Assembly (NCBI RefSeq): GCF_030013595.1
Contig: NZ_CP122768.1
Source: Escherichia coli
GTDB lineage: Bacteria; Pseudomonadota; Gammaproteobacteria; Enterobacterales; Enterobacteriaceae
DNA length: 64,000 nt
Direction: 5' to 3' (one strand)
The position numbers were made by a program, and so were the translations under genes. The notes under the pieces are model-generated. The model saw only the letters and a program-made list of their open reading frames with translations. It was not told where the DNA came from and ran no database searches. Every line of letters starts with the position of its first letter. Within the stretch, counting starts at the first letter, position 1. Below are positions 4,296 to 63,182 of the stretch, one piece after another.

Positions 4296-5483
4296 TTAGA
4301 ACTGGTAGACTAAGCCCACAGCTACGATATCATCGGTAGCGATGCCGTTTTCTTTGTAGAAGTCGTCGTCGTTGTCCAGCAGGTTGATTTTGTAATCAAC
4401 GTAGGTGGACATGTTTTTGTTGAAGTAGTAGGTCATACCAATATCAACATATTTAACCAGATCTTTGTTGGTGTAATGATGATTGCCCTGGCTGTCGAAG
4501 TTATCACTATTTACACCGCCTAAATCCTTACCTTTAGATTGCAGGTAAGCGATGGACGGGCGCAGACCGAAGTCGAACTGATACTGAGCAACCACTTCAA
4601 AGTTTTGGGTTTTGTTAGCGATCGCATCAGCATCACCGTAACCAGTCATGTTACGGGTTTCAGCATACATAGCTGCTAAGTAAACGTTATTAGCGTCGTA
4701 TTTAGCACCAACGGTCCATGCTTCTGCTGTTTCACCGCCAGCAGTTGCATCGAAGCGATCTCCATAACGAGTGTTATGAGTACCTTTGTGAACCTGATTG
4801 TCGGTACGGTCAGAGTTAGAGTAAGCAGCGCCCAGACTTAAACCAAAGTCAAAGTCATAGGAAGTGGACATACCGAAGCCGTCGCCGTTCTCTTTAGCTA
4901 ACTTACGGCCATTACCGTTACCAGAACCTTCCTGACCGAATAATCCATCATCTTCATTATTACCCTGATATTGCAGAGCAAAGTTCAGGCCATCGACCTG
5001 GCCAAAGAAGCCATTGTTACGGTAGGTTGCAACACCATTAGCACGACCGTTCATGAAGTTGTCGGCACCAGCATAGGTATCGCCACCAAATTCTGGCAGC
5101 ATATCGGTCCATGCTTCGATGTCATATACGACACCGTAGTTACGACCATAGTCGAAAGTACCATTCTGACCAAAGCCTAAACCTGCAAATGCCAGACGCG
5201 TTGCGGTATTACCTTTGTCGCTTTCAGGACCGTTTGCGCCAATGTTAAATTCCCACTGACCATAACCAGTGAATTGGTCAGCGATCTGAGTTTCACCTTT
5301 GAAACCGATACGGGCATATGACATGTCGCCATCGCTGCCAGCATCATCAGAGAAGTAGTGCAGGCCCGCTACTTTTCCGTACAAATCCAGTTTATTACCA
5401 TCTTTATTATAGACTTCAGCCGCATTTGCTGCGCCAGCAACTAATAACGCCGGGACCAGCATTGCCAGAACTTTTCTTTTCAT
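4296..5483 (-). CDS. yedS: OmpC/OmpF-family outer membrane porin, apparently intact
   Basis: ORF 4296..5513; signal peptide from ATG 5483 ([21 protein letters not shown]); porin motifs; C-terminal aromatic residue. Confidence 0.8.
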
Positions 5484-6111
5484 TATGTATTCCCTTGTGA
5501 TTATAATCTTCATGAATATATCAATAAGTGCTGTTATCCAAAAAAAAGCACATTTGGATACTATTCTATGAAGTTCATTTTATTTTAAAGATTACATGTA
5601 ACAAATGTATTTAAAAGATTTCAAAATGTTTCCAATCTGTTTAATATAATTCAGAATTATGAATTCTGAATATAAATATTCACGAATATTATGAATGCAT
5701 ATCAATATGTTATGAGTTGAGCGGAAACATAGGGAGTATCAATGATTGTTGTGCTAAACGGCTGGTGTGATCTCGCGCACATTAATGAAGGCATAAAAAA
5801 AGCCGGCATCATGCCGGCCCAAAAAATATAAACAAGACGATAAAAGGCTAATAACGGAAGCATCATGACACAGAATAATAAAAAGGGATAATTGTAATCA
5901 GTGCTAATATATTGATTGAATGAATTAATAAAGCCGATATCAAAGATAAATAAAATCGCTCAAAACGATTTTTCCTGTATTCACTGCCATTGCGCAAAAA
6001 TTATCTATTTGTTCAAAAAATGATTGAGTCTTGACTGGCTCATCCAATGTGGAAAAATGTGACTTTTATCACATAATAGTACTAAGTCTGAATTTTCCGG
6101 GTTATCTCAAA

Positions 6112-32235: not shown

Positions 32236-32601
32236 TCAAAAGAGGTTATCCTGCGGAGCCAGCACAAAGCCGCCCTGATCGCCATAGGCACTTAACACCG
32301 ATTTTTGCATCGATGACTGACCGACCAGTTTCGCCAGTTCATCCATCCGAATCTGTAATAACTGCTTCACCTTGCTTTCGTTATCGAGAATCAGGCGCAG
32401 CATCGGGCGGAGTTGCTCCTGCATCGTGGTGGACGGCTCAACCTCTTCAGTCAGGTGTGCAATCTCCTGCACCGCATTCACATACGCCATTTCGCTGGCG
32501 ATGAGTTCGTCCCACTGTTCTTCCGTTGCCAGGCGTAACATGAGCTGGCTTTTTTCGACGAGTTGTTGCCAGGCGAAATACAAATGCGGTGCGTGGTTCA
32601 T
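32236..32601 (-). CDS. fliT: flagellar chaperone / FlhDC anti-activator FliT
   Basis: 121-aa ORF. Confidence 0.92.
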
Positions 32602-33011
32602 CAGACTGGGTCCTGAATCAAAGAAGGGGAGAGTAACGACTCTTTCCAGGCATCGGCAATATTGCGCATTAATGCTTCCACTTCTTCGACTGCGGAGACA
32701 TCGTTGCGTAAATTGGCTTGCAGCAAGCGCCTGACCATATAGCTATAAAGAGCAATCAAGTTTTGGGTTAATTCGTCTTTGCTCTCTTCATCAAGACTCA
32801 CCCGCAGCCCGTTCTCAATGATGTTGATCGCTTTTGACAAAGAGACGCCTTTGCCTTGCTGATTGTTGTCCTGCATAAACAGGCGCGCTCTAACCAGTGC
32901 GCTCAGCACTCCATCAAATAGCATGGTGACCAGCTGTTGCTGGCTGGCGCTCATTACGGCGCTTTCGACGCCAATTTGTGCATAGGCCTGGGTGCCTTTT
33001 GCCGCGTACAT
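32601..33011 (-). CDS. fliS: flagellin-specific chaperone FliS
   Basis: 136-aa ORF. Confidence 0.93.
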
Positions 33012-33035: not shown

Positions 33036-34442
33036 TTACTTGGAATTACTGTTGTTTTCGAACTGCTGCGTTAAGTAGCTGCTGGTGCTATTTAACGAGG
33101 TCATTAAAACGTCCAGTTGGGTAAATTGTTCTTTGTAGCGAGCGACCTGCGCATCAATGCGATCGCTGGCGGCGTTGTAGTCTTTAGTTAACTTATTCAG
33201 GGTCTTACTAACGCCATCGGTAGCGGCTTTAATAATGCCCGTTGTCGAAAGCCAACTGGTCAGGTTGCTGCCGATGGTGGTCGTGATGCCGGTTTTTTTA
33301 CCATCGCCAACAATCAATGCACCTACGCCGCTGGCATCTTTTTTCAATGCAGCGGTGAGTTTGTCGGCATCCAGCTCCAGTTTGCCATCGCTGGGATCGG
33401 TCGTGATACCAATCTGCGCCAACGTTTTATAGTTGGAAGAACTAACGGTATTACTCAGCATCGACTTCAACTGCGTCTGAATCGTCCGCAACGTGGAGTC
33501 GCCGAGCAGTGCGCCATTGCTAGAACTCTGGCTATCAGCTCCCGCATCTACGGCGGTGTATTTGGTCAGGCTGCTGAAGGTATCTATTAGCGAGTTATAG
33601 GCATTCACCCAGTCTTTAATCGCCGTTTGCGCTTTGGAGGTGTCCTGAGTGATGGTCAGCGTCTGGTTGCCCGTGGTGACATCGTTCAGGTTCAGGGTGA
33701 TGTTTTCCAGCGCGTCGCTGATGGTGTTGCTGCTGTTCTCGATGGCGACGTTGTTGACCGTCAGCTGCGCATTCTGGGCGGCGACCGAGACCTCCATGCC
33801 GTTGCTGCTGGCACTGGCGTCATAGCCTATAAAACTTTGTAGCGCATCATCACCGCTAACCGAGAGCGTCATCGCATTGTCAAGGCCGGTGTCATTTGAT
33901 GTGACTGACAGACGATATTCACCGTTACCCACGTTAATGATGCTCGCGCTAACACCCGATTTTGCGTTGTTGATGGCATCACGGATCCCGCTTAACGACG
34001 AGTTAGCCGCGCTGATATCAATGGTAATCGGATCTTTGTCGCCGCCTTGTTGAATGGTGAGTTTGCTGTCGCTGGTGGCGATCGCCGTTTTCGTATCGTC
34101 TCTGGTGGTACGCGTGGTCAGGGTTTGCGCCTGCGCCAGATGGGTGACGCTGATGGTGTATTTCCCGGCGATGGCGTTACCTGCGGTGGTGGCACTGAAC
34201 GCGGTGGTGCTGCTGGTGGTGCTGGTGGCGGAAAAAAGATCGGCTTTAGACAATGCAGTATTGGCGGTCTGGAAAGTCGTCAGCGCGCTTTTCAGCGTAC
34301 CGTAGGCGCTAAGTTTAGCGGTAAACGACGATTGCTGATTTGAAATAGGGGTTAGCGTCGCTTTTTGCGCGGCGGTGAGGCTATCAAGGATTGAACTTAA
34401 ATCCAGGCCTGACCCGACTCCCAGCGATGAAATACTTGCCAT
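33036..34442 (-). CDS. fliD: flagellar filament cap protein FliD
   Basis: 468-aa ORF. Confidence 0.93.
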   Translation of the reverse strand: MASISSLGVGSGLDLSSILDSLTAAQKATLTPISNQQSSFTAKLSAYGTLKSALTTFQTANTALSKADLFSATSTTSSTTAFSATTAGNAIAGKYTISVTHLAQAQTLTTRTTRDDTKTAIATSDSKLTIQQGGDKDPITIDISAANSSLSGIRDAINNAKSGVSASIINVGNGEYRLSVTSNDTGLDNAMTLSVSGDDALQSFIGYDASASSNGMEVSVAAQNAQLTVNNVAIENSSNTISDALENITLNLNDVTTGNQTLTITQDTSKAQTAIKDWVNAYNSLIDTFSSLTKYTAVDAGADSQSSSNGALLGDSTLRTIQTQLKSMLSNTVSSSNYKTLAQIGITTDPSDGKLELDADKLTAALKKDASGVGALIVGDGKKTGITTTIGSNLTSWLSTTGIIKAATDGVSKTLNKLTKDYNAASDRIDAQVARYKEQFTQLDVLMTSLNSTSSYLTQQFENNSNSK

Positions 34443-34485
34443 GCGATTTCCTTTTATCTTTCGACACGTAAAACGAATACCGGGG

Positions 34486-34512
34486 TTATCGGCCTGAATT
34501 GCGCAAAGTTTA
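34486..34512 (-). promoter_or_regulatory. sigma28 (FliA) class III promoter of fliDST
   Basis: Minus-strand TAAACTTT-N11-GCCGATAA matches sigma28 consensus. Confidence 0.7.
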
Positions 34513-34604
34513 CGTTTAATTGTTTTTTTTAATAGCGGGAATAAGGGGCAGAGAAAAGAGTATTTCGGCGACTAACAAAAAATGGCTGTTTGTGAAAAAA
34601 ATTC

Positions 34605-34631
34605 TAAAGGTTGTTTTACGACAGACGATAA
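34605..34631 (+). promoter_or_regulatory. sigma28 (FliA) class III promoter of fliC
   Basis: TAAAGGTT-N11-GACGATAA about 75 bp upstream of fliC start. Confidence 0.7.
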
Positions 34632-34707
34632 CAGGGTTGACGGCGATTGAGCCGACGGGTGGAAACCCAATACGTAATCAACGACTTGCAATATAGGATA
34701 ACGAATC

Positions 34708-36360
34708 ATGGCACAAGTCATTAATACCAACAGCCTCTCGCTGATCACTCAAAATAATATCAACAAGAACCAGTCTGCGCTGTCGAGTTCTATCGAGCGT
34801 CTGTCTTCTGGCTTGCGTATTAACAGCGCGAAGGATGACGCCGCAGGTCAGGCGATTGCTAACCGTTTTACTTCTAATATTAAAGGCCTGACTCAGGCTG
34901 CACGTAACGCCAACGACGGTATTTCTGTTGCACAGACCACCGAAGGCGCGCTGTCCGAAATCAACAACAACTTACAGCGTATTCGTGAACTGACGGTTCA
35001 GGCTTCTACCGGGACTAACTCTGATTCGGATCTGGACTCCATTCAGGACGAAATCAAATCCCGTCTGGACGAAATTGACCGCGTATCCGGTCAAACCCAG
35101 TTCAACGGTGTGAACGTACTGGCGAAAGACGGTTCGATGAAAATTCAGGTTGGTGCGAACGATGGCCAGACTATCACTATCGACCTGAAAAAAATTGACT
35201 CTGATACGCTGGGGCTGAGTGGGTTTAATGTGAATGGTGGCGGTTCTGTCGCTAACACTGCTGCATCTAAAGCTGACTTGGTAGCTGCTAATGCAACTGT
35301 GGTCGGCAACAAATATACTGTGAGTGCGGGTTACGATGCTGCTAAAGCGTCTGATTTGCTGGCTGGAGTTAGTGATGGTGATACTGTTCAGGCAACCATT
35401 AATAACGGCTTCGGAACGGCGGCTAGTGCAACGAATTACAAGTATGATAGTGCAAGTAAGTCTTACTCTTTTGATACCACAACGGCTTCAGCTGCCGATG
35501 TTCAGAAATATTTGACCCCAGGTGTTGGTGATACCGCTAAGGGCACTATTACTATCGATGGTTCTGCACAGGATGTTCAGATCAGTAGTGATGGTAAAAT
35601 TACGGCAAGCAATGGAGATAAACTCTACATTGATACAACTGGGCGCTTAACGAAAAACGGCTCTGGTGCATCTTTGACTGAGGCTAGTCTGTCCACACTT
35701 GCAGCCAATGATACCAAAGCGACAACCATTGACATCGGCGGTACCTCTATCTCCTTTACCGGTAATAGTACTACGCCGGACACTATTACTTATTCAGTAA
35801 CAGGTGCAAAAGTTGATCAGGCAGCTTTCGATAAAGCTGTATCAACCTCTGGAAACAATGTTGATTTCACTACCGCAGGTTATAGCGTAAACGGCACAAC
35901 TGGCGCTGTAACAAAAGGTGGTAATTCGGTTTATGTTGATAACAACGGGGCGTTGACCACATCTGATACTGTAGATTTTTACCTACAGGATGATGGTTCA
36001 GTGACTAACGGCAGCGGTAAGGCAGTTTATAAAGATGCTGACGGTAAATTGACGACAGATGCTGAAACAAAAGCAGCTACGACAGCCGATCCCCTGAAAG
36101 CTCTGGACGAAGCCATCAGCTCCATCGACAAATTCCGCTCCTCCCTCGGTGCCGTTCAAAACCGTCTGGATTCTGCGGTGACCAACCTGAACAACACCAC
36201 TACCAACCTGTCTGAAGCGCAGTCCCGTATTCAGGACGCCGACTATGCGACCGAAGTGTCCAATATGTCGAAAGCGCAGATCATTCAGCAGGCCGGTAAC
36301 TCCGTGCTGGCAAAAGCTAACCAGGTACCGCAGCAGGTTCTGTCTCTGCTGCAGGGTTAA
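34708..36360 (+). CDS. fliC: flagellin (H antigen), 550 aa
   Basis: Conserved N-terminus ([12 protein letters not shown]) and C-terminus ([12 protein letters not shown]) flanking a T/S/G/A-rich variable centre. Confidence 0.95.
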
Positions 36361-36402
36361 TCGTCGTACCTGATTAACTGAGACTGACGGCAACGCCAAA
36401 TT

Positions 36403-36502
<100 letters not shown>

Positions 36503-36533
36503 ACTTGAATGGTAATTTGTCAGCAACGTGCTT

Positions 36534-36557
36534 CCCCGCCACCGGCGGGGTTTTTTC
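36534..36557 (+). terminator. rho-independent terminator
   Basis: ccccgccaccggcgggg hairpin followed by tttttt. Confidence 0.7.
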
Positions 36558-36678
36558 TGTCCGCAATTTACCGGTAACCCCCAAATAACCCCTCATTTCA
36601 CCCACTAATCGTCCGATTAAAAACCCTGCAGAAACGGATAATCATGCCGATAACTCATATAACGCAGGGCTGTTTATC

Positions 36679-37398
36679 GTGAATTCACTCTATACCGCTG
36701 AAGGTGTAATGGATAAACACTCGCTGTGGCAGCGTTATGTCCCGCTGGTGCGTCACGAAGCATTGCGCCTGCAGGTTCGACTGCCCGCGAGCGTGGAACT
36801 AGACGATCTGCTACAGGCGGGCGGCATTGGGTTACTTAATGCCGTCGAACGCTATGACGCCCTACAAGGAACGGCATTTACAACTTACGCAGTGCAGCGT
36901 ATCCGTGGCGCTATGCTGGATGAACTTCGCAGCCGTGACTGGGTGCCGCGCAGCGTGCGACGCAACGCGCGTGAAGTGGCACAGGCAATAGGGCAACTGG
37001 AGCAGGAACTTGGCCGCAACGCCACGGAAACTGAGGTAGCGGAACGTTTAGGGATCGATATTGCCGATTATCGCCAAATGTTGCTCGACACCAATAACAG
37101 CCAGCTCTTCTCCTACGATGAGTGGCGCGAAGAGCACGGCGATAGCATCGAACTGGTTACTGATGATCATCAGCGAGAAAACCCGCTACAACAACTGCTG
37201 GACAGTAATCTGCGCCAGCGGGTGATGGAAGCCATCGAAACGTTGCCGGAGCGCGAAAAACTGGTATTAACCCTCTATTACCAGGAAGAGCTGAATCTCA
37301 AAGAGATTGGCGCGGTGCTGGAGGTCGGGGAGTCGCGGGTCAGTCAGTTACACAGCCAGGCCATTAAACGGTTACGCACTAAACTGGGTAAGTTATAA
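36679..37398 (+). CDS. fliA: flagellar sigma factor sigma28
   Basis: 239-aa ORF from GTG; sigma70 regions 2 and 4. Confidence 0.95.
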   Translation: MNSLYTAEGVMDKHSLWQRYVPLVRHEALRLQVRLPASVELDDLLQAGGIGLLNAVERYDALQGTAFTTYAVQRIRGAMLDELRSRDWVPRSVRRNAREVAQAIGQLEQELGRNATETEVAERLGIDIADYRQMLLDTNNSQLFSYDEWREEHGDSIELVTDDHQRENPLQQLLDSNLRQRVMEAIETLPEREKLVLTLYYQEELNLKEIGAVLEVGESRVSQLHSQAIKRLRTKLGKL

Positions 37399-42649: not shown

Positions 42650-43107
42650 TTATTTTCCTCGTCATGTTGCAATGAAAATTTGCGGTGAAAAATGTTAAGG
42701 CGGCGGAGTATACCATAAGCTTCGCTAAAAATAGCAGTGGTTGTTTTTTGAGCGTGATATCGGCAGTGCTATAAAATACGTTAATATAATGACCAATAAA
42801 TATTTTTATCATGAATGTTTTTTGCCCGTATTGTTCGGGTTAATTAATGTTACATATTCAGCGGGCTGATTTTCATTTTTGCTGAATAAAGTCAATTTTT
42901 GTCACATTTCATCGCAGGGCTTACAGTGAAACGATCCCGGAAGCCGTTGGTGACGGGCGTGACCATAACTGTGGACAATCGAATTTACAAAAACGAGAGA
43001 AAAATCGAATACCCACCATTTTTAACGTTTCAAAGTTGCAATAAAAACCGCTAATATACGAATGACTAACTATCAGTAGCGTTATCCCTATTTCTGGAGA
43101 TATTCCT

Positions 43108-46349: not shown

Positions 46350-46425
<76 letters not shown>

Positions 46426-46479
46426 GTTTAAAAGGCATCGGCGTCAAGCGGATGTCTGGCTGAAAGGCCTGAAGAATTT

Positions 46480-46553
46480 GGCGCGTTAACAAAGCGGTTA
46501 TGTAGCGGATTGCAAATCCGTCTAGTCCGGTTCGACTCCGGAACGCGCCTCCA
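46480..46553 (+). tRNA. cysT: tRNA-Cys (anticodon GCA)
   Basis: ggcgcgttaacaaagcggttatgtagcggattGCAaatccgtctagtccggttcgactccggaacgcgcctcca. Confidence 0.95.
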
Positions 46554-46565
46554 CTTTCTTCCCGA

Positions 46566-46652
46566 GCCCGGATGGTGGAATCGGTAGACACAAGGGATTT
46601 AAAATCCCTCGGCGTTCGCGCTGTGCGGGTTCAAGTCCCGCTCCGGGTACCA
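46566..46652 (+). tRNA. leuZ: tRNA-Leu (anticodon TAA), long variable arm
   Basis: gcccggatggtggaatcggtagacacaagggattTAAaatccctcggcgttcgcgctgtgcgggttcaagtcccgctccgggtacca. Confidence 0.95.
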
Positions 46653-46694
46653 TGGGAAAGATGAGAATAAAATCAAAGCAATAAGCAGTGTCGT

Positions 46695-46720
46695 GAAACC
46701 ACCTTCGGGTGGTTTTTTTG
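46695..46720 (+). terminator. rho-independent terminator of the tRNA operon
   Basis: aaccaccttcgggtggtt hairpin followed by T-run. Confidence 0.75.
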
Positions 46721-46782
46721 TGTCTTCTTTCTCATTTCCGAAGATGCGTCCGAAGATGATTTTTCTCTGGACGCATCATCAT

Positions 46783-47799
46783 TCATTTTCTCTGGCCACC
46801 AACTACGGGCACTACTTTAACTTTTCGGTCATATGCTGCTGTCTGTCGTGGGTTCTTATGCCCGGAAATTGCTTGCTTCTCTTCCAGGCTGCCTTCCAGA
46901 TCAGAGATACCTTTTGCTTTCAGATCATGAAATGTGAAGTCTATTTGCAGATGAGGATATTTTTCCTGTGCTGCCGCTTTGACATCACGCCAACGAGAGT
47001 TAAAACCATCACGGGTGTACTTGCCTCCGGTAGTTTGATGAATCACAAACAGGCTACTGATTCCCGGTTTTAATGGCAGAGAACGAGCCAGAGCTATCGC
47101 TTTCTGCAGACGAGGCGACCAGGCTTTGATTTGCTTAACGCCGGTTTTTCCCTGACGAATGTAGATCCCGGAATCGAACAGCTGGTCTTTCTGTAATGAA
47201 AGTACATCACTCTGTCTGGCCACACATAAGTAGGCAATCTCCATTGCCACGCGAACAACATCAGGAGACACTTCATAAACGGCCTGATATTCTTCATCCG
47301 TAATATAACGTTCGCGTGCTGTCTCTTTAAACTGCTTAACTCCCTGACAAGGATTCCTCTGGACATAACCTCGTTCATAACCCCAACGGAATACCCTGGA
47401 CATAAAGCTTTTTTCCCTATTTGCCTGAGTTCGGCTTGATAAACCGCGTTGATCCATATAGCGCCGAATATGTTCAGGTTTGATTTTATCCGGGTCGATC
47501 TTCCCGAAGACAGGCAGAACTTTTCCGGAATATTTTGTGTAGTCTTTCCTGGTTTCGACTGCCAAATCCATAAAATCAGGGGAGGTCATGAATTGTTCCG
47601 CGAGCGCCTGAAAAGTATTTCTTTCTTTTTCGTCACCGACCGCTTTTTCATATGCCAGCCATACGGCTGATCGTGGCGCATCCAATGCGCACAGGCGTAT
47701 CGCTTTGTTATCTTTATTCCTGAATTCGTAGGCCGCTTTGCCCTGGTAAACACGAGGCGGCATCCAGTTATCTGCTGGGTTCTTTCTCTTTCCGGCCAT
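46783..47799 (-). CDS. int: phage tyrosine integrase
   Basis: ORF 46783..47826; likely start ATG 47799 with GGAG 9 nt upstream; C-terminal catalytic region. Confidence 0.8.
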   Translation of the reverse strand: MAGKRKNPADNWMPPRVYQGKAAYEFRNKDNKAIRLCALDAPRSAVWLAYEKAVGDEKERNTFQALAEQFMTSPDFMDLAVETRKDYTKYSGKVLPVFGKIDPDKIKPEHIRRYMDQRGLSSRTQANREKSFMSRVFRWGYERGYVQRNPCQGVKQFKETARERYITDEEYQAVYEVSPDVVRVAMEIAYLCVARQSDVLSLQKDQLFDSGIYIRQGKTGVKQIKAWSPRLQKAIALARSLPLKPGISSLFVIHQTTGGKYTRDGFNSRWRDVKAAAQEKYPHLQIDFTFHDLKAKGISDLEGSLEEKQAISGHKNPRQTAAYDRKVKVVPVVGGQRK

Positions 47800-48031
47800 T
47801 AAATATTGCTCCAAAATCAGGTTCATCTTCTTTTCGCGTCGTCACCTCCTGTAAATTGCGAAATTTTATTGGGTTCAAGAAATGGCCCCAGGTTGTTTTT
47901 GGGTGCCCGTCAGCCCTTTCCATGAAGAAAATTCCAGCCCGGCGAAGAGCCTCACATTGCTTTGATTTAAGTGGGCTTCCCGTCAGCTCGACCATTTCTT
48001 CTCTGGTGATTATGTCGTGATCGCTTTTCAT
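47768..48031 (-). CDS. small phage protein, DUF4224-like (excisionase-associated)
   Basis: 87-aa ORF overlapping int start, typical xis-like position. Confidence 0.5.
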   Translation of the reverse strand: MKSDHDIITREEMVELTGSPLKSKQCEALRRAGIFFMERADGHPKTTWGHFLNPIKFRNLQEVTTRKEDEPDFGAIFNGRKEKEPSR

Positions 48032-48240
48032 GGTCTTTCCTCATTATGTAGCTTATTGCGTCATCTGCCTTCTGGCAGGCACGGGCAATATCAGACTCGG
48101 TCAAAGTCTGTTTCCTGACGCTGGCCGACAGTCGGCCAATTTTGATATCAAATGCGGAGAGCAGAGTTGCTCCCGGTTGCCATCGCAGCATTGTGATCCT
48201 CCGGTTACTGGTGAAACGCAATGCTAGCGATGGTGAGTTT

Positions 48241-48423
48241 TTATTTCTGATTAGGCGTAATCAGTTCTGGTGGGGGGAATGCCGATTTCTCCCGCGTGAC
48301 CTTAATGTTTTCTGGCAGGTGTAGCCCAAGTTCGCAGCGACTCCGTGCTTCAATAATGCCATTGGTACCATCGGCAAGTACCAGGTGAACCGCGTCACCA
48401 CGCTTTAATGTGAGTTTAAGCAT
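48241..48423 (-). CDS. hypothetical phage protein
   Basis: 60-aa ORF abutting next gene. Confidence 0.4.
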   Translation of the reverse strand: MLKLTLKRGDAVHLVLADGTNGIIEARSRCELGLHLPENIKVTREKSAFPPPELITPNQK

Positions 48424-48992
48424 TAGCGTACCCTCAGCGAACGTTCGCCGCGTTCCAGATGTGCGCCTGGTACCGGGTTTAATAACTCGGCTGGTGGTGT
48501 TTCTCCACGCGCCAGTATTTCGGCGGCAACCGCCTCCGCAGATTCAATCACTTCTTTAATGGCTCGCTTGTTTGGTGTAATAACCGTTTCTACATCAACA
48601 AGTGACACGCCTTCATACTCATCCGGGATCTTATCTTTGCTATCGATAATTACCCGGATAGCCCCCTGTGCATCAGTAAATGTGTTTTTTGCGGTTTTTA
48701 GTTTATCCAGGCCAGCAGCTTGCAGGCAGGCGAGCATATGCTTCCGAATTGCTTTTTCCTTGCCTTCAAAGGACGTCTTACGGGTAGCCAGGCGAGACAT
48801 TTCTTCAGCGCAGGTACTGGCATTGCCCTGTAAATTACGGCAGATGACCATCATGGCGTCCAGTTTGTCTCCCAGTTCTCCTTCCATACCTTCAAGCGTG
48901 TCGGCGATCATCTCTGGCGTCAGTTCGTCGGAGGTTTCTAACAGGTCAATCAGACTGGCATATTCTTTTGCAATAGCGATAGCAGTGCTCAT
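48423..48992 (-). CDS. Siphovirus Gp157-like phage protein
   Basis: 189-aa acidic ORF; family assignment from recall, tentative. Confidence 0.5.
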   Translation of the reverse strand: MSTAIAIAKEYASLIDLLETSDELTPEMIADTLEGMEGELGDKLDAMMVICRNLQGNASTCAEEMSRLATRKTSFEGKEKAIRKHMLACLQAAGLDKLKTAKNTFTDAQGAIRVIIDSKDKIPDEYEGVSLVDVETVITPNKRAIKEVIESAEAVAAEILARGETPPAELLNPVPGAHLERGERSLRVR

Positions 48993-51214
48993 GCTGTTTG
49001 CTCCTGTGCTGCGGTGAGGGCGGTGAGGCGTTCGGTTTTGATTTCATTCAAACGGCGCAGGCGCGAACCAAGATAAGTTGAATACTCCTTATCACCTTTG
49101 GATTCTGCGGCCTTGCGGTGAACTTCTACTTCCCGCGCAATAAGGCCATAGACTTTATTAACTTCATTGGGGGTTACGGCTGCAGCCAGTGTTTTGGCAA
49201 CACCTGAGAGTCGTTCATCCAGTTCTTCACGCAGTCGGGTAGCATCCTCTGCTTTCTCGCTTGCCTTCTTAATACTGTATTCTGTATTCAGCTCGGCGGT
49301 GTAGGCACTATCGTTATGCATATCCATATAAACATCTGCCGCAAATCCCAGATGAGATAGTGCTTTGACGGTGGCATCAGTAAGAGACTTTTTGGAGGCC
49401 TCTTTTTCCATTACCAGTGCCCCTTTGTTATTTTTTGATATGTAATCCGTGTGGCCATATGACGGAATAAATCCTTTCACTCCGTTCCAGATGTACCAGA
49501 GATCTATCCGGATGGTGTGTACTGACAGGCAGAACAGGGAACCGTCAGCATCCCTGACAGGTTTTTGTCCAATAATTTTCCCTGTCTGATCCTGTATAGG
49601 TTCAAGTAATGGCACACCGCGATCCACTCGCTCCTCCTTGATTTCAACTCCCCAACCAATGCCTTCCATTCCCAGCACTTCAGTCGCACGCATCAAAATA
49701 TATTGTGCGCGTATGGAGTGCAGTCCTGCACCGTAATCATTATGTGTGACATACGCAGGATCGGTCCGCTGAACGCGATTCCAGATAGCCAAATTTGCTT
49801 TGCTCTGGTCATCATTCATTGCTGACAGATAATGCTCCATGCGAATTGATGCAGTTTTTTCCTCGGCATGGGGCGGCTCAACCAGCGCGTCAACGTTCTG
49901 CACCAGGTCTTTTACCTGCTCGCTAAGTTTTTCTTGTGGAGGAGTCTCTTCTGCCGGGGTAATAGCTGCAGGTTCCCTCTGTGATACGGCGTTATTTTCA
50001 GGTACGTCATACACATGGCGAGGCGTGACAAACTGCTCACGCAACTGCTGCAAACTACGTTCTCCAGCATTTGCTGCTTCGCTTTTTTCGCCCTGATTTG
50101 AGGGTGTTTCTGACATCATTCCATCAATTGAGAATCGCCCGCCGCCGTGGTTGGTGACTTTTACATCATCCTTTGGTGCTGTTTCCTTTGGCTTCTCTTC
50201 AACAGCATTTGCATCACGCTGCCCGTTAGCTTGCAGCCAGTTGTCGATGTGACTGCGCAGGGATTGCGGGAAGTGGTACGTGTCTTTTGCGGGGGCGCTC
50301 TGAATAACACCGAATACTGATGCGCGGTCATAGGCAAGGATCTGATCCGTTGTGCGCAAGGCCATTGACCAGCGTTTAAAATCCTCCCGATCCTGGCTGA
50401 TTATTTCGTCTGCCGCTTTCAGGACGCTGGGGGTGATTTTTTCCGGGCCAACGGGTAACAGGGCGCAGGCAATTTCACGATCCAGTGTGGCGTGAGTCTG
50501 TTGGTAAGGACGTGCGGATGCTGTTTCTGGTTTTACCTCCGGCAGCATTTCATCGCGTTTACCGGGATTCTCTACCCATTTTTTTATAAATTTGGAGATA
50601 GTCCAACTGGTCGGGTTTTGTTCCTGGGTATCGCAACTTGCCAAAATTGCATGTACCAGATTATTCAATCCAGCAATATGCATGTACTCGATGGGCTTAC
50701 ACGCCACCATGGCATCAAGAACGATGCGGTTAAACGCGTCAACCTCATCCTCACTGTCAGTATCACTGTTGTCGAGCATCTCCAGGTATTCACGCGTCTG
50801 CGCAAGCAATTCACTGTCGACTTCGTTGGCGTCGTGGCTGAACAGCAGGACGGCGGCGAAGCGTTCACGAGCCGGCAGTTTCATCAGGTCGTTAACCTGT
50901 GCGATATCTGCTGAACCGCTATCTGAATCAGCGGGGGTGTTAACTACCCATTTTTCGCCATCAAAACTGTGTTCTGTGGCAAACGTCTCATCAAACTCAC
51001 CGACGCCAGGGCGCGGTTGGCCCGGGGCATCTTCCCAGATTTTAGGTTTGAAATAGTTGTCGCCGTGGTCAGGGTAGGCTTCCCACAATTTGCCGATGAT
51101 GATGTTCTCGGCAACTTTTTTGTTAGGGGCGTCGATGGCGATGGCCAGCGCCGGGATCGCGCCGTTTTTGAGCGCGCCTTTTTTCGCTTCTAACAAGCCG
51201 TTAAAGATGGTCAT
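48989..51214 (-). CDS. large phage protein: acidic N-terminal region fused to Rad52-like single-strand annealing domain
   Basis: 741-aa ORF; C-terminal FCLSVHTIRIDL...SYGHTDY...KALSHLGFAADVY resembles Rad52/Sak core. Confidence 0.55.
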   Translation of the reverse strand: MTIFNGLLEAKKGALKNGAIPALAIAIDAPNKKVAENIIIGKLWEAYPDHGDNYFKPKIWEDAPGQPRPGVGEFDETFATEHSFDGEKWVVNTPADSDSGSADIAQVNDLMKLPARERFAAVLLFSHDANEVDSELLAQTREYLEMLDNSDTDSEDEVDAFNRIVLDAMVACKPIEYMHIAGLNNLVHAILASCDTQEQNPTSWTISKFIKKWVENPGKRDEMLPEVKPETASARPYQQTHATLDREIACALLPVGPEKITPSVLKAADEIISQDREDFKRWSMALRTTDQILAYDRASVFGVIQSAPAKDTYHFPQSLRSHIDNWLQANGQRDANAVEEKPKETAPKDDVKVTNHGGGRFSIDGMMSETPSNQGEKSEAANAGERSLQQLREQFVTPRHVYDVPENNAVSQREPAAITPAEETPPQEKLSEQVKDLVQNVDALVEPPHAEEKTASIRMEHYLSAMNDDQSKANLAIWNRVQRTDPAYVTHNDYGAGLHSIRAQYILMRATEVLGMEGIGWGVEIKEERVDRGVPLLEPIQDQTGKIIGQKPVRDADGSLFCLSVHTIRIDLWYIWNGVKGFIPSYGHTDYISKNNKGALVMEKEASKKSLTDATVKALSHLGFAADVYMDMHNDSAYTAELNTEYSIKKASEKAEDATRLREELDERLSGVAKTLAAAVTPNEVNKVYGLIAREVEVHRKAAESKGDKEYSTYLGSRLRRLNEIKTERLTALTAAQEQTA

Positions 51215-51244
51215 TGGTCTTTCCTCATTACAGGTCAGTGGTCT

Positions 51245-51565
51245 TTAGTAGGGGATTTCATCAGTATCTGGCGTGTATTCGATGCAAAGTAACTGCTGGA
51301 TTTTGTCATCGATAGCAGCAATACGCTGTTGGGCGTCGGCGACTGTTTTCTGTTTTTGCTCATACAGCTGCTCGACCTGCAAACCGATGATGTCGATTGG
51401 CTGGGGCTGGTTGACGGTAATTTCAATTTCGCGGCTTTCCAGAAGGATGTACCTGTCTGGAAAATTTTTTGACATATCAACAGTCGCAACAAGCAGCTTT
51501 TCGTGGCTGAAAGTTGAAGTTGCATAATTAATAAAGAGTGTTACTGGGATGGTGCGCGCTTCCAT
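51245..51565 (-). CDS. hypothetical phage protein
   Basis: 106-aa ORF with AAGGAG RBS. Confidence 0.5.
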   Translation of the reverse strand: MEARTIPVTLFINYATSTFSHEKLLVATVDMSKNFPDRYILLESREIEITVNQPQPIDIIGLQVEQLYEQKQKTVADAQQRIAAIDDKIQQLLCIEYTPDTDEIPY

Positions 51566-52561
51566 AGCGACTCCTTGGTGATGTATACTCGGGACCGATC
51601 AGCGAATATTGATCAGCTTCCATAGCGTCAGTGTCGTTGGTCTTTCCTCATCACAAGTTTGGTCACTTGTGATAAATCCGAATGGTTTGGTCGCCGTTCG
51701 GGGTAACTGGCCCGCCTTGTGCGGGTCTTTTGCTATCTAAAGGGTGCCGGTTACGTTTCCGGCGTCGTTATGTTTCCATCACGACCGTACGGGGCTGGTC
51801 TTTCCTGTTTTGAGCTGGTCAGGCTCATGGTCAACGCTGGTCAGGCGTGGTACTTCCTCCGGTCTTTCCCTGGTGTCACGCTGCGGGTTTGGCCTCTCCT
51901 GTTGGGGACTCAGGCACAGCGATAAAACCTGGCTGTGTGAAAAAATGGCCCATCGTGCGGACTGGGCAAAGGCTAAACACAGCAAATTGATGATGGGCGC
52001 CCGGAATCGAACCGGGTAACGGGCAGGGAGTTCCCGTTAAACACCTGTTCACCACAACCGGGAGCGCACTCCGCCATTTCAAAATTTAACGACAAAGCTC
52101 AAAGTTGAGTCGATGAAGTGCGCTCTCGTGTTGTAGCCAGGACTCTTCCCTGGTGGTCACACCGTATCGCCTTGATGGTGAATCAATCGCTCATACCTGG
52201 CTGTGGCTTGCACATTCCGGCTAGCTGCTATGGAGACAACGCGTTAAGGCTCCGCTTCCATCCAGACCGCTTCGACACATGTGCCATATGCCGGCGAAGT
52301 CTTTCCCTCTGTCATCGTGTTGGCGCCGACGCGCAAAATTTGATGCCGTCTTTCCGGCTGTCAGAACGTGTTTCTGAACAACTGCCGCTGGGTAAGCGTT
52401 GTTGATGAAAGTGACTTTACAATTTGTATTTGTAATGGTCAACGTATTTTTAAAAAATAATTTGTAGTTAGGGGCAAAAAAATATTCACTGTGTAAAGGT
52501 GTTTTTGTGTTAGGGGGAAAGTTGCATGCCAGCAGCGGCTGGCCTGGAAATTTGAACTGAA

Positions 52562-52975
52562 CTATTTTGTCTGGTTTTTGGCTTCAAGTAGTTCTTTTAG
52601 CAGTAGATCGAAGTGCTCTCTTTTTTCTTTTAGCTCATTGATTAATTTATTTTTTTCGCTCTCAGGCAGTCCTCTGAATAGTTGCAGTAGAGCCTGTTCT
52701 TGCGGGGTTAGTTCTTGATTGTAATTACCCGGGTGTAGCGTGGATTCATCCAAATATTCACCTTCATTCATGAAGAAAAAATGAACAGGGTATCCGGTCA
52801 CTTTTGCTAGCTTGTCTAATTTATCTTTTCTTGGAGTTACCCCATTACACCATGCCTGAACTGATTGAGCCGTAACCCCAATATGGCGAGCTAACTCAGA
52901 TTGAGACCAGCCTAAGTCTTTTAGAATCCGTTGTAGTCGGCTAGCAAAAGCCATGTTTTTCGTTTTTGTGTTCAT
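52562..52975 (-). CDS. phage repressor-like HTH protein (cI-like)
   Basis: ORF 52562..52990 opens on TTG; HTH (GWSQSELARHIGVTAQSVQAW); divergent from cro-like gene; start uncertain. Confidence 0.7.
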   Translation of the reverse strand: MNTKTKNMAFASRLQRILKDLGWSQSELARHIGVTAQSVQAWCNGVTPRKDKLDKLAKVTGYPVHFFFMNEGEYLDESTLHPGNYNQELTPQEQALLQLFRGLPESEKNKLINELKEKREHFDLLLKELLEAKNQTK

Positions 52976-52994
52976 ACCGTAAGGATACAAGGTT

Positions 52995-53060
52995 TAATTG
53001 TAGGGAGCATTGCAAATATAATTTGTAATTACAGTTATGATTTGTAATGATGGCGCGGAC
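52995..53060. promoter_or_regulatory. candidate operator/promoter region between divergent repressor and cro-like genes
   Basis: Repeated ATTTGTAAT half-sites (ttgcaaatataatttgtaattacagttatgatttgtaatga). Confidence 0.45.
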
Positions 53061-53073
53061 ACAAGGAGTCCAT

Positions 53074-53304
53074 ATGGATAAACAACTGCAAGACAAAATT
53101 CTTTCCGTAATGAGTCAATCCGAGTTAGGGCGGCGATTAGGGAAAAAACCACAAACGGTAAGCCTCTGGTTCAAAGGAAGGGTTCCCGGTGAAGAGGTTT
53201 TGCGCACATCTGAAGCTCTTGAATGGCGCGTGACCCCCCATGATCTTAGACCGGATCTTTACCCAAACCCAGATGACAGCTTGCCTAAAACGAAAGCAGC
53301 TTAA
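53074..53304 (+). CDS. Cro-like HTH regulator
   Basis: ORF 53047..53304; ATG 53074 after AAGGAG; HTH (SQSELGRRLGKKPQTVSLW). Confidence 0.7.
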   Translation: MDKQLQDKILSVMSQSELGRRLGKKPQTVSLWFKGRVPGEEVLRTSEALEWRVTPHDLRPDLYPNPDDSLPKTKAA

Positions 53305-53362
53305 CTGTTGGTGAGCCCCAAATCTGATTAAGCGTAATCAATTTTTAGCGACAGGAGACGCT

Positions 53363-53839
53363 ATGGAAAACCAAGAGGAATTACAAAAAGAGATTTTGAC
53401 CTGGGCGGCAAGGGCAGGGCAGGAACTCGTCACGATTGAAATCTGCCGGGCCTGGTTCAGTCAGGGACGCAATGATGAGTTGAGACTACATGAATTTGAG
53501 GACGCGGACGGCAATGTGGACTGGAGAGCCATCAACAACAATCGGCAGAAAATCTTTCGCTGGTTACGTGGCGAGACAACGGCGGCGCGCCGAAAAACTC
53601 AGGTGCTGGCCAGTGTGATGAAAGCCGTGCTACCCGCAGAACGGCGGGCGCGTCTGGAGTCGCCGGGCGATCCCGTTTTGCTGGCAACGCTGGCGGCAAA
53701 AGAAGGGGTGGAAGCGATTAACGCTGTACATCTCCACTTCGCGCCAGAGATAACTATTCAGGAAATTGACGAAGCAATAGCGGCGCTGGTAGCGACGCGA
53801 GGGGCAGTGATAAGCACTGCGCAAGGCCATCATGCATGA
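53363..53839 (+). CDS. hypothetical phage early protein
   Basis: 158-aa ORF after cro-like gene. Confidence 0.5.
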   Translation: MENQEELQKEILTWAARAGQELVTIEICRAWFSQGRNDELRLHEFEDADGNVDWRAINNNRQKIFRWLRGETTAARRKTQVLASVMKAVLPAERRARLESPGDPVLLATLAAKEGVEAINAVHLHFAPEITIQEIDEAIAALVATRGAVISTAQGHHA

Positions 53840-53878
53840 GCGCCTGACCAGCGTTTAACTTATACCGAGGAAAGACCG

Positions 53879-54103
53879 ATGTTAAGACATATTGACCGCA
53901 TTACCTGGCGTAACGGCTGGCACCTGAATGGACGCCCGGCACATGTTGCAGAGATCCAACCTATTTTTGATGGGCGTATGGCTGCCGCGCTTTCGGTGTG
54001 GGAGCAGTATGAATCCAGGAAGGTCGAGTTGCGCGACAAAGGGCTGAGCAATGCGGACTATGAAGCCGGTTGTCGTCAGATAGCCGAAGCTCTGGAGATC
54101 TGA
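53879..54103 (+). CDS. hypothetical phage protein
   Basis: 74-aa ORF preceded by conserved leader ...accgaggaaagaccgATG. Confidence 0.45.
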   Translation: MLRHIDRITWRNGWHLNGRPAHVAEIQPIFDGRMAAALSVWEQYESRKVELRDKGLSNADYEAGCRQIAEALEI

Positions 54104-54105
54104 GT

Positions 54106-55182
54106 ATGAGTCGTTTGCTGATTAACGAAAACCCCCTTCAGGTCCTGCCCACGTTGGCATGCACTATAGGGTTGAATGAAGCCATCGTTCTACAGCAAAT
54201 CCACTACTGGCTGAATTCATCTCAAAATTTCTTCGAAAATCGCCACTGGGTGTACAACAGTGTGACCGATTGGCAAGAACAATTCCCGTTCTGGAGCGAG
54301 TCGACAATAAAACGCGTGCTGGCCAATCTGGAAAAATTGAATGTGGTATTTACTGGGAACTTTAACAGTGATGCCTGGGATAAAACCAAGTGGTATTCAA
54401 TCAATTATGCCCAGTTATGTAAGATTGAAGAGACAACATTCCCTGTGGCCAATCGATTAGGTCAAGTTGACCCAATCGAAGAGGTCAATGTGACCCAAGC
54501 ATCAGGTCAAGTTGACCCATGCGCTAAGGTCAAAATGACCCAATCTCTTACAGAGAATACAACAGAGAGTACTACAGAGAGTACTACAGAGATAAAAGAT
54601 CCCCCTTACCCCCAAAAGGGGGAGGGCGAGGAAATCATTCTCGCTGACGCTCAAAAAGCTCTGAACTACTACAACGAGAAAGTCGGTACACGCTGCCGCG
54701 ACGTTAAACCGTTTGTCATGCTGCTGACTGCCACCACCACCCGCGCTGGTTACAGCGTGGCTGAGATTCAGTTAGTAATTCGTTGGGTTATTGCGACATG
54801 GCGCCGTCGTAGCGGAAGCGTGCCGAAACCTGCGAACATTTGCCGCGTAAACCGGTTTGACGGATATCTGGCTGACGCTGAGGCGTGGGCCACTGCTGAG
54901 GCTGCCGTTGACCCTGCTGAAGTTGTGAAGGGCTACAACGAGATTCTGGGCGACCTGCTACCTATAGCTGAAATTGATACTGACCGCCGTCGGGCAATCC
55001 TGCGCCTGCTGGCACATATGCGCACGCAAACTCTTGGCGCATTTATCGGCTACTTCGAAAAATTCCGCGATAACGCCCCAGACTTCTATTTCGGCGGCGA
55101 ATATCGCACCGGCTGGCGGGCAGGGTTTGATTACCTGATGAAGCCAGAAACACTGCGTAAAACCAGGGAAGGGGCATTATGA
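54106..55182 (+). CDS. phage replisome organizer (O-like initiator)
   Basis: ORF 54070..55182; ATG 54106 after GGAG; iterons inside the coding sequence. Confidence 0.7.
   Translation: MSRLLINENPLQVLPTLACTIGLNEAIVLQQIHYWLNSSQNFFENRHWVYNSVTDWQEQFPFWSESTIKRVLANLEKLNVVFTGNFNSDAWDKTKWYSINYAQLCKIEETTFPVANRLGQVDPIEEVNVTQASGQVDPCAKVKMTQSLTENTTESTTESTTEIKDPPYPQKGEGEEIILADAQKALNYYNEKVGTRCRDVKPFVMLLTATTTRAGYSVAEIQLVIRWVIATWRRRSGSVPKPANICRVNRFDGYLADAEAWATAEAAVDPAEVVKGYNEILGDLLPIAEIDTDRRRAILRLLAHMRTQTLGAFIGYFEKFRDNAPDFYFGGEYRTGWRAGFDYLMKPETLRKTREGAL
54459..54542 (+). repeat. four iterons AGGTCAAnnTGACCCA at 22-23 bp spacing (candidate ori)
   Basis: Copies at 54459, 54482, 54504 and 54527; followed by tandem acagagagtact repeats. 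Confidence 0.7.
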
Positions 55183-56570
55183 ATCCAGAAGAACTGGAAG
55201 CGATCGTTCTCGCTGGTCTGATTAACGGTGGCGCGACGCCTGACGCGTTTGATGTGATTGCCACTACTCCGGAGGAAGCCTTCAGCATCGTGTTTCACCG
55301 TCGCGCTTTCAGCGAAATCAAAAAGCAGGCACTGGCGAACGGCATGATCGACATGTTGTTTATCAGCGAAGCGCTGGGCGGTTCCAGCCTTGCGGATCTG
55401 TCTCAAATATCCCGGATCCCGGCAACGGTACCGAATCTGAAAGGCTATGCCGGGAAAATGGTGCGGGCATGGCGGAGCCGCAAAATGGCGGCATTGTTGC
55501 AATCTGGCGCGGATGGTATCCGTAACGCTGTAAACCAGAGTCAGCGTGATGAGGTTATTGAATCTCATGTTGCTCAGGTGCTGGATATGAGCGCCGCTAC
55601 CGGCACAGTCCAGCCGGTACACATCAAAGAGCTGTTACCGCTCTACATTGACACCGTTGATAAACGGATGTCTGGCGACGCGCAGGAAATGATGCTGAAA
55701 ACCGGAGTCGAGGATCTGGATGTCGCCCTGGGCGGTATCAACATGACCGACCTTGTTGTGGTTGCCGGTCGTCCAGGCATGGGGAAAACGGAATTTACCC
55801 TGAAGATTATCGATGGCGTTACCGCAGATGGCGGCGGCGCACTGTTTTTCAGCATGGAAATGGGCGCTCAGCAGATTGTTGAACGTACCGTTGCCGGGGC
55901 TGGGAATATGTCCACGTCGCGTCTGCGTAATCCAAAAGAAATGGACGATGAGGATTTGACCAGATTAACCGCCGCGCTTGCAATCATGCAGGATCGCGAT
56001 ATCTGGATTGTTGATGCCACTGATTTGACGATTGAGCAGATCCGCGCCATTGCAGAGACTCATAAACGCCGTTATCCGCACCTGAAGTTGATTGGTGTTG
56101 ATTACATGGGCCTGATCAAAAAACCGAAGGCCGAGCGCCACGATCTCGCTGTCGGGCATATCTCCCGCAACATGAAGACTATGGCCATGCGTCTGCATAC
56201 CCCTGTTTTTGCTCTTAGCCAGCTTTCCCGCCAGGTGGATTCTCGACCTGCTGGCCAGCGTCGCCCGGTGATGTCGGACCTGCGCGATTCCGGCAGTGTT
56301 GAGCAGGACGCTGACAGCATTTTGTTTTTGTACCGCGATGAAGTTTACACACCTGATTCACCTGCAAAGGGTATCGCCGAGGTGATTATCGGTAAAAACC
56401 GTTCTGGCGGGGCAGGTGAAATTATTTATCAGGAATTCCGGAATGGGCATTTCCTGCCAATTGATCAACACGTAGCACGCGAAAAATTACGCATCCAGAA
56501 GGAGGCAGAGCAACCGAGAAAACGTGAAAAACGGTATTCAAACAAAAACTTTAATACGGACCCATTTTAA
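55179..56570 (+). CDS. DnaB-family replicative helicase
   Basis: 463-aa ORF; Walker A GRPGMGKTEF. Confidence 0.85.
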   Translation: MNPEELEAIVLAGLINGGATPDAFDVIATTPEEAFSIVFHRRAFSEIKKQALANGMIDMLFISEALGGSSLADLSQISRIPATVPNLKGYAGKMVRAWRSRKMAALLQSGADGIRNAVNQSQRDEVIESHVAQVLDMSAATGTVQPVHIKELLPLYIDTVDKRMSGDAQEMMLKTGVEDLDVALGGINMTDLVVVAGRPGMGKTEFTLKIIDGVTADGGGALFFSMEMGAQQIVERTVAGAGNMSTSRLRNPKEMDDEDLTRLTAALAIMQDRDIWIVDATDLTIEQIRAIAETHKRRYPHLKLIGVDYMGLIKKPKAERHDLAVGHISRNMKTMAMRLHTPVFALSQLSRQVDSRPAGQRRPVMSDLRDSGSVEQDADSILFLYRDEVYTPDSPAKGIAEVIIGKNRSGGAGEIIYQEFRNGHFLPIDQHVAREKLRIQKEAEQPRKREKRYSNKNFNTDPF

Positions 56571-56608
56571 CCACGCATGACCAGCGTGAAATAACCGAGG
56601 AAAGACCA

Positions 56609-57019
56609 ATGACCACCATTTCAGGCAAATTAGAGTACCCGTCGGACAAAGGACACATAGACGACGGTAAAAACTATCTCGACGTCATTTTGTGGAATAT
56701 GAACGCCGGGCCACGTGCGCGCACTCGTGCGGTTTTTGTACCAAGACCCAAAGCAGGCAATTTTTCAACACCAGCTCAGCCTGCCCGTCAGGCATCCGTA
56801 GCCGCAGCGCCAGCAGTGAAATGTAAGGGTAAAACGCACATCGGGATCGCGATTCGCAGAAATGGTGAGCGGCAAGTGAAACTCCACGAAACAGCGACAA
56901 CCTGGTGTGCTTCACCGCATGAAACTTACGACAAGATAACCGGGCAGCGCATTGGTGCGCCTGGTCGCTGTCGCCTGCTGTTGAGCTCCATCACTCCGAT
57001 AGAAAAGAAAGGGGCGTGA
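56609..57019 (+). CDS. hypothetical phage protein
   Basis: 136-aa ORF preceded by conserved leader ...accgaggaaagaccaATG. Confidence 0.45.
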   Translation: MTTISGKLEYPSDKGHIDDGKNYLDVILWNMNAGPRARTRAVFVPRPKAGNFSTPAQPARQASVAAAPAVKCKGKTHIGIAIRRNGERQVKLHETATTWCASPHETYDKITGQRIGAPGRCRLLLSSITPIEKKGA

Positions 57020-57020
57020 T

Positions 57021-57257
57021 ATGACCGGGCAATCAGATTACCTGCCGCCCGGCTTACCACACAACCGCGCCAAATGGCCCCAGGAATACCAGCTTAAAGA
57101 GCACTACGACATGCGAGCGGCGGCGCTGATCCGCCAACTCTTTGAGAAACGTATTCCGAGGGGAAGCGTGATTGAGCAAATCGGAATGACGCCGGATACA
57201 TACCGGGAATTTTTCAGAGAGCGTCTGAACTACTGGAGAGGGGTGATGGAACAATGA
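57021..57257 (+). CDS. hypothetical phage protein
   Basis: 78-aa ORF tightly packed in operon. Confidence 0.4.
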   Translation: MTGQSDYLPPGLPHNRAKWPQEYQLKEHYDMRAAALIRQLFEKRIPRGSVIEQIGMTPDTYREFFRERLNYWRGVMEQ

Positions 57258-57565
57258 AATACAAACGGTGGGTGCGTGCGGAAGTCGTAATCATCAAACA
57301 ATGTGCAGGCAGCATGACAGTTGAACGTATAGGGCAGCTTATTGGCAGAACCGGTGCAGCGGTACGCACAAAAGCGCGCGAGCTGAAAATCTGTATGTAT
57401 CTGCGGGGTAATTATCATCAGTCAGCGAAATACTGCCAGGAGGATATCGAGCTGGCAAGGGAATTACATCAGTCGGGTATTAATCGCCAGGATATCGCGG
57501 AAAAACTCGAAATGCCGATCGGAGCGGTGAATCAGTTTGTTTATTTTGAGCGGAGGATTTCATGA
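57254..57565 (+). CDS. hypothetical phage protein, possible HTH
   Basis: 103-aa ORF overlapping neighbours by 4 nt. Confidence 0.4.
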   Translation: MKYKRWVRAEVVIIKQCAGSMTVERIGQLIGRTGAAVRTKARELKICMYLRGNYHQSAKYCQEDIELARELHQSGINRQDIAEKLEMPIGAVNQFVYFERRIS

Positions 57566-57786
57566 AAGAACTTTTTCTGGCATTTGTGCCCCGGTTTATT
57601 AATGACCAGATCGCACTGACTAATAATGGTGAACAATATGAAATTGCCTGCAGCATGGTGGATGTGAATCCTGGCGAACGGTATGACGCGATGTGTGACC
57701 TGAAAATATTTACCTGGCTGGGTTGGGCTATTCCGTGTGGAGAACCAACCAATATTCGCCCATTTGAGAGCAGGGAGGCTGTATGA
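57562..57786 (+). CDS. hypothetical phage protein
   Basis: 74-aa ORF. Confidence 0.35.
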   Translation: MKELFLAFVPRFINDQIALTNNGEQYEIACSMVDVNPGERYDAMCDLKIFTWLGWAIPCGEPTNIRPFESREAV

Positions 57787-57949
57787 GTGAATTGAAAATA
57801 CGAATGAACCCAAGTCGCAAGGCGATCAAATTTGCGCAGTGTGTCTTGCAGATGGCTGAAGGTGAATGTTATATAAAAGAGTGTCATGGATAACAAGGCA
57901 CTCACTATCAATGATTATCTGTTAAAAAAGCAATCGACAAGGAGTTGAA

Positions 57950-58207
57950 ATGCAGACTCAATTAAAGGTTAAAGGCGGTTATAGTCATTTTTTCTTCGCC
58001 AATATTGAAGTCTCACAAAGAGAGTCAAATGGCGGTTTGGTTGTCGTTAGGGATGTTAATATACCTATTACAACAACAACTCTCTCTCTGTTAGAGAATT
58101 ACGCTGTAGGGCAGGTGTTGACGTTAGAACAAAAGAATGGCGATTTTTTTGATGTGTATTACGTTGGAACTGATGGGAATAACTTTCAGTTTTCAACGCA
58201 CTGCTAA
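57950..58207 (+). CDS. hypothetical phage protein; its 3' end lies in left copy of a ~200-bp direct repeat
   Basis: 85-aa ORF with GGAG RBS. Confidence 0.45.
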   Translation: MQTQLKVKGGYSHFFFANIEVSQRESNGGLVVVRDVNIPITTTTLSLLENYAVGQVLTLEQKNGDFFDVYYVGTDGNNFQFSTHC

Positions 58208-58310
58208 TTTATCAAGGCCCTGTGAGCAGGGCCTTCGAAAGCCTACTAAAGTCTGTTTCATAGAGAGAGTTATTTGCGATTAAAAAGGTATTTGGTCACG
58301 ACCAGCACGA
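58114..58310. repeat. left copy of diverged ~200-bp direct repeat
   Basis: Aligns to 63183..63374 at roughly 85% identity with short indels. Confidence 0.7.
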
Positions 58311-58419
58311 TAGAGAATACATCTTTCAAAGTACCGCCCATATAAAACAGTTACATATGCACTTGATGACTAAGCTGGCACCAGGTTAACACCATGCGCC
58401 AGCTTGAAGGAGACTTCAG

Positions 58420-58593
58420 TTATTGGTTTCTGAGGAAAGCGATTCTTGAAAGGGTCATTTGCGTCTGGCAGTCGACCATTTTCTTGACTTCAGCATCTGT
58501 TCCTTTCTTGACTTCAGCATCTGTTCCCTGCATTGAAACTTTACCGCACATAGCATCCTTAGTTTTGATCCACTGGCGCTGAGAAGGCAGCAA
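58420..58593 (-). pseudogene. 3' fragment of lipoprotein gene split by IS629
   Basis: Joining across the IS with one copy of the ACT target duplication restores one frame to TAA at 58420..58422. Confidence 0.65.
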
Positions 58594-58649
58594 CTTGAAC
58601 CGCCCCGGAAATCCTGGAGACTAAACTCCCTGAGAAAGAGGTAAACAGG

Positions 58650-58976
58650 ATGACTAAAAATACTCGTTTTTCCCCCGAAGTCCGTCAGCGGGCGATTCGT
58701 ATGGTTCTGGAAAGTCAGGATGAATATGACTCACAGTGGGCGGCAATTTGTTCCATTGCCCCAAAGATTGGCTGTACGCCGGAGACTCTGCGTGTCTGGG
58801 TTCGCCAGCATGAGCGGGATACCGGGGGCGGTGATGGTGGGCTCACCAGCGCTGAACGTCAGCGTCTGAAAGAGCTGGAACGTGAAAATCGTGAACTGCG
58901 CCGCAGTAACGATATCCTTCGCCAGGCTTCCGCTTATTTTGCGAAGGCGGAGTTCGACCGCCTCTGGAAAAAATGA
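58650..58976 (+). CDS. IS3-family transposase OrfA
   Basis: 108-aa [25 protein letters not shown] recognised as IS629/IS1203 OrfA. Confidence 0.9.
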
Positions 58977-59863: not shown

Positions 59864-59905
59864 GTTCACAGATAAAACACTCTCCAGGAAACCCGGGGCG
59901 GTTCA

Positions 59906-63082: not shown

Positions 63083-63182
63083 ATGACGAAAGTGGGTTGT
63101 TTATAAGAATTGAATAAACAACCCATCATTTTAATGTACTCTGAATCCTCTCATTCTTAGTGAAATATTGTTTTTAGAACAC

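Follow-up and report, generated by a model that had tools for sequence, protein, structure and literature searches.

A chromosomal fliC gene of Escherichia coli with an H14-type hypervariable region in a minority allele

Which H antigen is specified by the flagellin gene in this 64,000-nt stretch of Escherichia coli DNA (NZ_CP122768.1; here called the window)? The original prediction, made from the sequence alone, was of a 550-aa flagellin with conserved termini and a long centre rich in T, S, G, A, and D, differing in length from the K-12 protein (given as 498 aa) and implying another H serotype. In the flagellar filament, the termini of flagellin make up the coiled-coil core (D0/D1) and the centre makes up the exposed outer domains, which carry the H epitopes.

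The product of the window gene is 100% identical to the annotated FliC protein WP_034173522.1 of strains HCP5S3_I2 and LCP30S3_I5. Pfam profiles recognize Flagellin_N (PF00669) at aa 5–140 (E 1.4e-46; 158.5 bits, cut-off 26.6) and Flagellin_C (PF00700) at aa 463–548 (E 4.6e-32; 110.6 bits, cut-off 23), with the E. coli-type middle family FliC at aa 330–454 scoring well over its curated cut-off. Together, T, S, G, A, and D make up 61.9% of the centre (aa 175–460). The predicted layout of the protein is borne out. At the locus (Table 1), fliT-fliS-fliD are on the minus strand, divergent from fliC-fliA-fliZ on the plus strand; this order is shared with K-12 (in the opposite orientation) and with H14-type genomes. 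At some distance, a short integrase pseudogene fragment (~26857–26997, identified from the HCP5S3_I2 annotation) lies just 3' of fliE (~26518–26832), and may be a relic of an old insertion bordering the fli region.

Table 1. Positions in the window of fliC, its parts, and its surroundings.
Feature	Position	Strand	Remarks
fliS	32601..33011	-	neighbour of fliC
fliD	33036..34442	-	neighbour of fliC
sigma-28 (FliA) type promoter motif, TAAAGGTT-N11-GACGATAA	34605..34631	+	read in the sequence, upstream of fliC
fliC CDS	34708..36360	+	intact ORF, 550 aa + stop; H14-type flagellin by similarity
Conserved N-terminal part, aa 1–174 (D0/D1 core-forming helices)	34708..35229	+	164/175 columns match K-12
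Hypervariable centre, aa 175–460, H-antigen-specific	35230..36087	+	K-12 centre unalignable
Conserved C-terminal part, aa 461–550 (D1/D0 helices)	36088..36357	+	Flagellin_C; last 69 columns = K-12
fliC 3' untranslated region, REP-like hairpins and putative intrinsic terminator	36361..36560	+	matches K-12 FliX stretch
fliA	36679..37398	+	neighbour of fliC; fliZ, tcyJ, and dcyD come next

The fliC gene of K-12 MG1655 (b1923) has 1497 nt including the stop codon and encodes 498 aa, the length given in the original prediction; the window protein is 52 aa longer. Aligned end to end, the two proteins are 65% identical, but nearly all of this comes from the termini, with 164 identities in columns 1–175 and 69 in the final 69 columns. 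In the middle there are mostly one to seven identities per 25-column block and many gaps, and the central ~286 aa of the window protein are unrelated in sequence to K-12 save for one short motif. Far from being identical to that of K-12 fliC, the centre is essentially unalignable with it, and the b1923-like central region that marks K-12 (H48) flagellin is absent from the window. The stretch originally singled out as variable, 35200–36000, corresponds to aa 165–431, and so to most, though not the whole, of the variable centre. Likeness to the K-12 gene is found in the locus, the promoter region (276/278), the 3' untranslated region, and the terminal domains.

At first glance, near-identical termini and a short motif common to both centres (TKATTI..GGT) might suggest a flagellin of the K-12 type (H48) into which the 52 extra residues had been inserted. 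This can hardly be the case, and was rejected: outside the one block that holds the motif, only 1–7 of 25 columns match across the centre, with many gaps, and no K-12-type genome is among the matches listed for a blastn search with the centre. The difference very probably reflects recombination that replaced the central segment and had its breakpoints inside the conserved ends. Recombination of the central segment via the conserved ends is the usual route of H-type exchange in E. coli, and the difference from K-12 is ordinary strain-to-strain variation.

To which H type the centre belongs was examined by searches of 5426 complete E. coli genomes, by megablast with the whole of fliC and by the more sensitive blastn with the 859-nt centre (35230–36088). 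The whole gene matched 5373 of the genomes by way of its conserved ends, with only 46 covering at least 80% of it. The centre has full-length matches in 47 genomes, at 96.3–100% identity; among the blastn matches listed, no other E. coli flagellin type covers more than ~11% of it. Six full-length fliC genes that were compared with the window gene are as long as it is, and their alignment with it has no gaps. Among the 47 strains, five have been typed as H14, in papers or by record name: FAM21845 (O68:H14; PMC5514686), CEC15 (O180:H14; PMC10680302), STEC435 (O91:H14; PMC10675304), SI-NP020 (uncl:H14; PMC8209727), and 873.10 (O18ac:H14 by the name of record NZ_CP061754.1). All five have 96.4% nucleotide identity to the window over 100% of the 859-nt centre. 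Since the full-length matches include strains typed H14, the window gene can be assigned to the H14 type of fliC, on the strength of its similarity to strains typed by others; those typings were probably for the most part made in silico. What a gene sequence gives is an H genotype, the serotype itself requiring expression and antiserum. With this reservation, the end-to-end match supports the expectation that the H type is other than that of K-12. In strain 873.10 (1127–4131 of the stretch of NZ_CP061754.1 compared), the H14 fliC is split by an IS3, and this strain is probably non-flagellated despite its name.

The 47 centres fall into three groups by identity to that of the window. The first, at 99.8–100%, has four members: the pig isolates HCP5S3_I2 and LCP30S3_I5, the environmental isolate OZ197100, and the alfalfa-sprout isolate 06-00048. 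The second has six (97.3–97.6%), and the third has 37 (96.3–96.7%, nearly all 96.4%), representing the common H14 allele; all five strains typed H14 are in this last group. The window protein, RefSeq WP_034173522.1, is thus a minority allele, seen in four complete genomes; no strain whose serotype has been published was found to carry it. A literature search for the strain names 2012EL-2448, which carries the common allele, and 06-00048, the sole named non-pig carrier of the exact protein, found no match, and H14 is absent from the text of PMC7168681.

With WP_000079702.1 of strain 2012EL-2448 taken as the common H14 reference (also found, for example, in the O91:H14 strain STEC435), the two flagellins occupy the same locus, are both 550 aa long without indels, and are 97.6% identical as proteins; nucleotide identity is 96.6% for the whole gene and 96.4% for the centre. 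The genes have 56 nucleotide differences, with 42 synonymous changes and 13 amino acid differences. These 13 are all inside aa 180–410 (window residue first): S180A, A300S, S319F, G320S, D335N, D358N, and N384D, and a cluster of six in aa 395–410, N395D, T397A, G405V, N406A, S407P, and V410I. The N-terminal part has no amino acid differences and 17 synonymous changes. By the Nei-Gojobori method, dS is 0.15 for the N-terminal and 0.13 for the C-terminal end, with dN and dN/dS of 0 for both; for the centre (aa 175–460), dS is 0.085, dN 0.022, and dN/dS 0.26. Strain 06-00048 has the same protein as the window, with two nucleotide differences in the centre and 25 synonymous ones in the ends. Mosaic E. 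coli flagellins arising by recombination, with breakpoints within the conserved ends, have been described (PMC7018530), and the 06-00048 pattern reads as mosaicism of the kind expected from such recombination. In the terms of the same study, the window allele would be an isoform within the H14 hypervariable-region form.

The 13 substitutions, six of them within 16 residues, could change epitopes. If surface-region changes had altered the dominant ones, the allele might be serologically distinct from reference H14, as a new H factor or subtype; all 13 are in the variable centre, and there is a precedent in H1 and H12, which are highly similar and share one hypervariable-region form yet are separate antigens (PMC7018530). 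This is nevertheless judged improbable. At 97.6% protein identity and without indels the two proteins remain close, and intermediate alleles 4, 5, and 10 residues from the window protein (in strains 1105, 23AR0806, and 19KM1831) suggest a continuum and not a separate type. The dN/dS value for the centre likewise gives no overall sign of diversifying selection.

As to the structure of the outer domains, the closest solved structure to the window centre, and the only solved flagellin with a matching centre, is that of enteropathogenic E. coli (EPEC) O127:H6 (PDB 7SN7 / 7SQJ). The two proteins are of similar length (548 aa for H6, 550 for the window), and the window centre is collinear with 7SN7 residues 173–455 (E 2e-22, 40.5% identity); H6 is however another H type, with 60% of central residues different and 30 gap columns. 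In H6 flagellin, the outer domains D2–D4 tetramerise to form a sheath around the filament core, for which dimer and tetramer contacts and a seam have been described; outer-domain-sheath flagellins are of the H6, H7, and Achromobacter types (PMC8931119). As the window centre is, by sequence, homologous to and collinear with the H6 centre, a three-domain outer region like D2–D4 of H6 is likely for H14 flagellin. There is only a slight chance that WP_034173522.1 is antigenically separable, as an undescribed H14 subfactor, and/or that its H6-like outer domains form a filament sheath; if they do, the sheath may affect swimming in viscous media.

Whether the gene would be expressed can be considered from its flanking sequences. 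The sigma-28 consensus is TAAAGTTT-N11-GCCGATAA, and the motif upstream of fliC (Table 1) has the features of a class 3 (sigma-28 dependent) promoter, to judge from its sequence. The stretch from fliD into fliC (34443–34720) is identical to K-12 at 276 of 278 positions, with the motif invariant. At the other end, the 3' untranslated region has a near-identical counterpart 3' of fliC in K-12, where RefSeq annotates the ncRNA fliX (sRNA FliX). It includes a putative intrinsic terminator, a GC-rich hairpin (stem 36534–36550) followed by a T run, to 36560. An Rfam scan of the fliC locus gave weak matches only, to the REP-derived families naRNA4 and ES036, both below gathering scores. A ~155-nt REP part of the fliC 3' untranslated region is missing from the H14-type strain 1105.

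A gene of this kind might be present and still not determine the phenotype, if the strain were non-motile (H-) or had another flagellin, of the flk, fll, or flm type, at a locus outside the window. Natural inactivation of an H14 fliC is known, in the IS3-split gene of 873.10; some E. coli genomes have two fliC-like places; and the view here is limited to 64 kb, with flhDC and other flagellin loci outside it. For the window strain such an explanation seems unlikely, however. No sign of a silent fliC could be read in the ORF, promoter region, or terminator, all of which are intact in the window; fliA, fliZ, fliD, and fliS beside it are all full-length ORFs; and the ~99.9%-identical HCP5S3_I2 chromosome has one fliC-like place only.

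The window gene is thus very probably an intact chromosomal fliC at its normal locus, a minority allele with an H14 hypervariable region, and specifies H14, not H48. Direct support for this reading comes from the identity of the gene as fliC, its integrity, its allele, and its similarity to H14 strains. Its conserved N- and C-terminal helices (D0/D1) would polymerise to build the core of the filament, with the ~286 residues of the centre folded into surface-exposed outer domains bearing the H-antigen epitopes, so that fliC would confer H14 in place of the H48 of K-12. By extension, expression of the gene and reaction of its product with H14 antiserum would be expected, as would an outer-domain fold like that of H6; a sheath may also form.

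Beyond fliC, the window is ~99.9% identical by BLAST to the chromosome of HCP5S3_I2, a UK pig isolate, over nearly its full length, and the two are identical at 33226–36800. They differ by an ISVsa5 insertion missing from the window, by the place of an IS3, and, in a porin gene, by an indel of 11 nt. The porin ORF (4296..5513, minus strand) is intact in the window, encoding 405 aa, with 11 additional bases at 4477–4487; the HCP5S3_I2 copy is annotated in RefSeq as "ompC, frameshifted." At ~42702–42710, the gene yecU is uninterrupted in the window, and has the IS4-like ISVsa5 inserted in HCP5S3_I2. The stretch 46350–64000 of the window has a prophage that adjoins a tRNA-Gly/Cys/Leu cluster (46350–46652) and begins with an integrase ORF (46783..47826, minus strand). 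In this stretch, an exonuclease ORF (48989..51214, minus strand) is intact in the window at 741 aa and split by IS3 in HCP5S3_I2; the window has its own IS3 copy at another site (58593–59905). A DUF262-family gene is found close to the window end.

The significance of these results is limited to strain description: both the gene and its antigen type are already known, it has no unusual feature, and no new biology is involved. The window strain is closely related to pig isolates from the UK, and its flagellin is of the H14 genotype, a type that less than 1% of the complete genomes searched have (47 of 5426). Its conserved ends, swapped centre, and synonymous mosaicism in the ends make up the textbook picture of H-antigen diversity.
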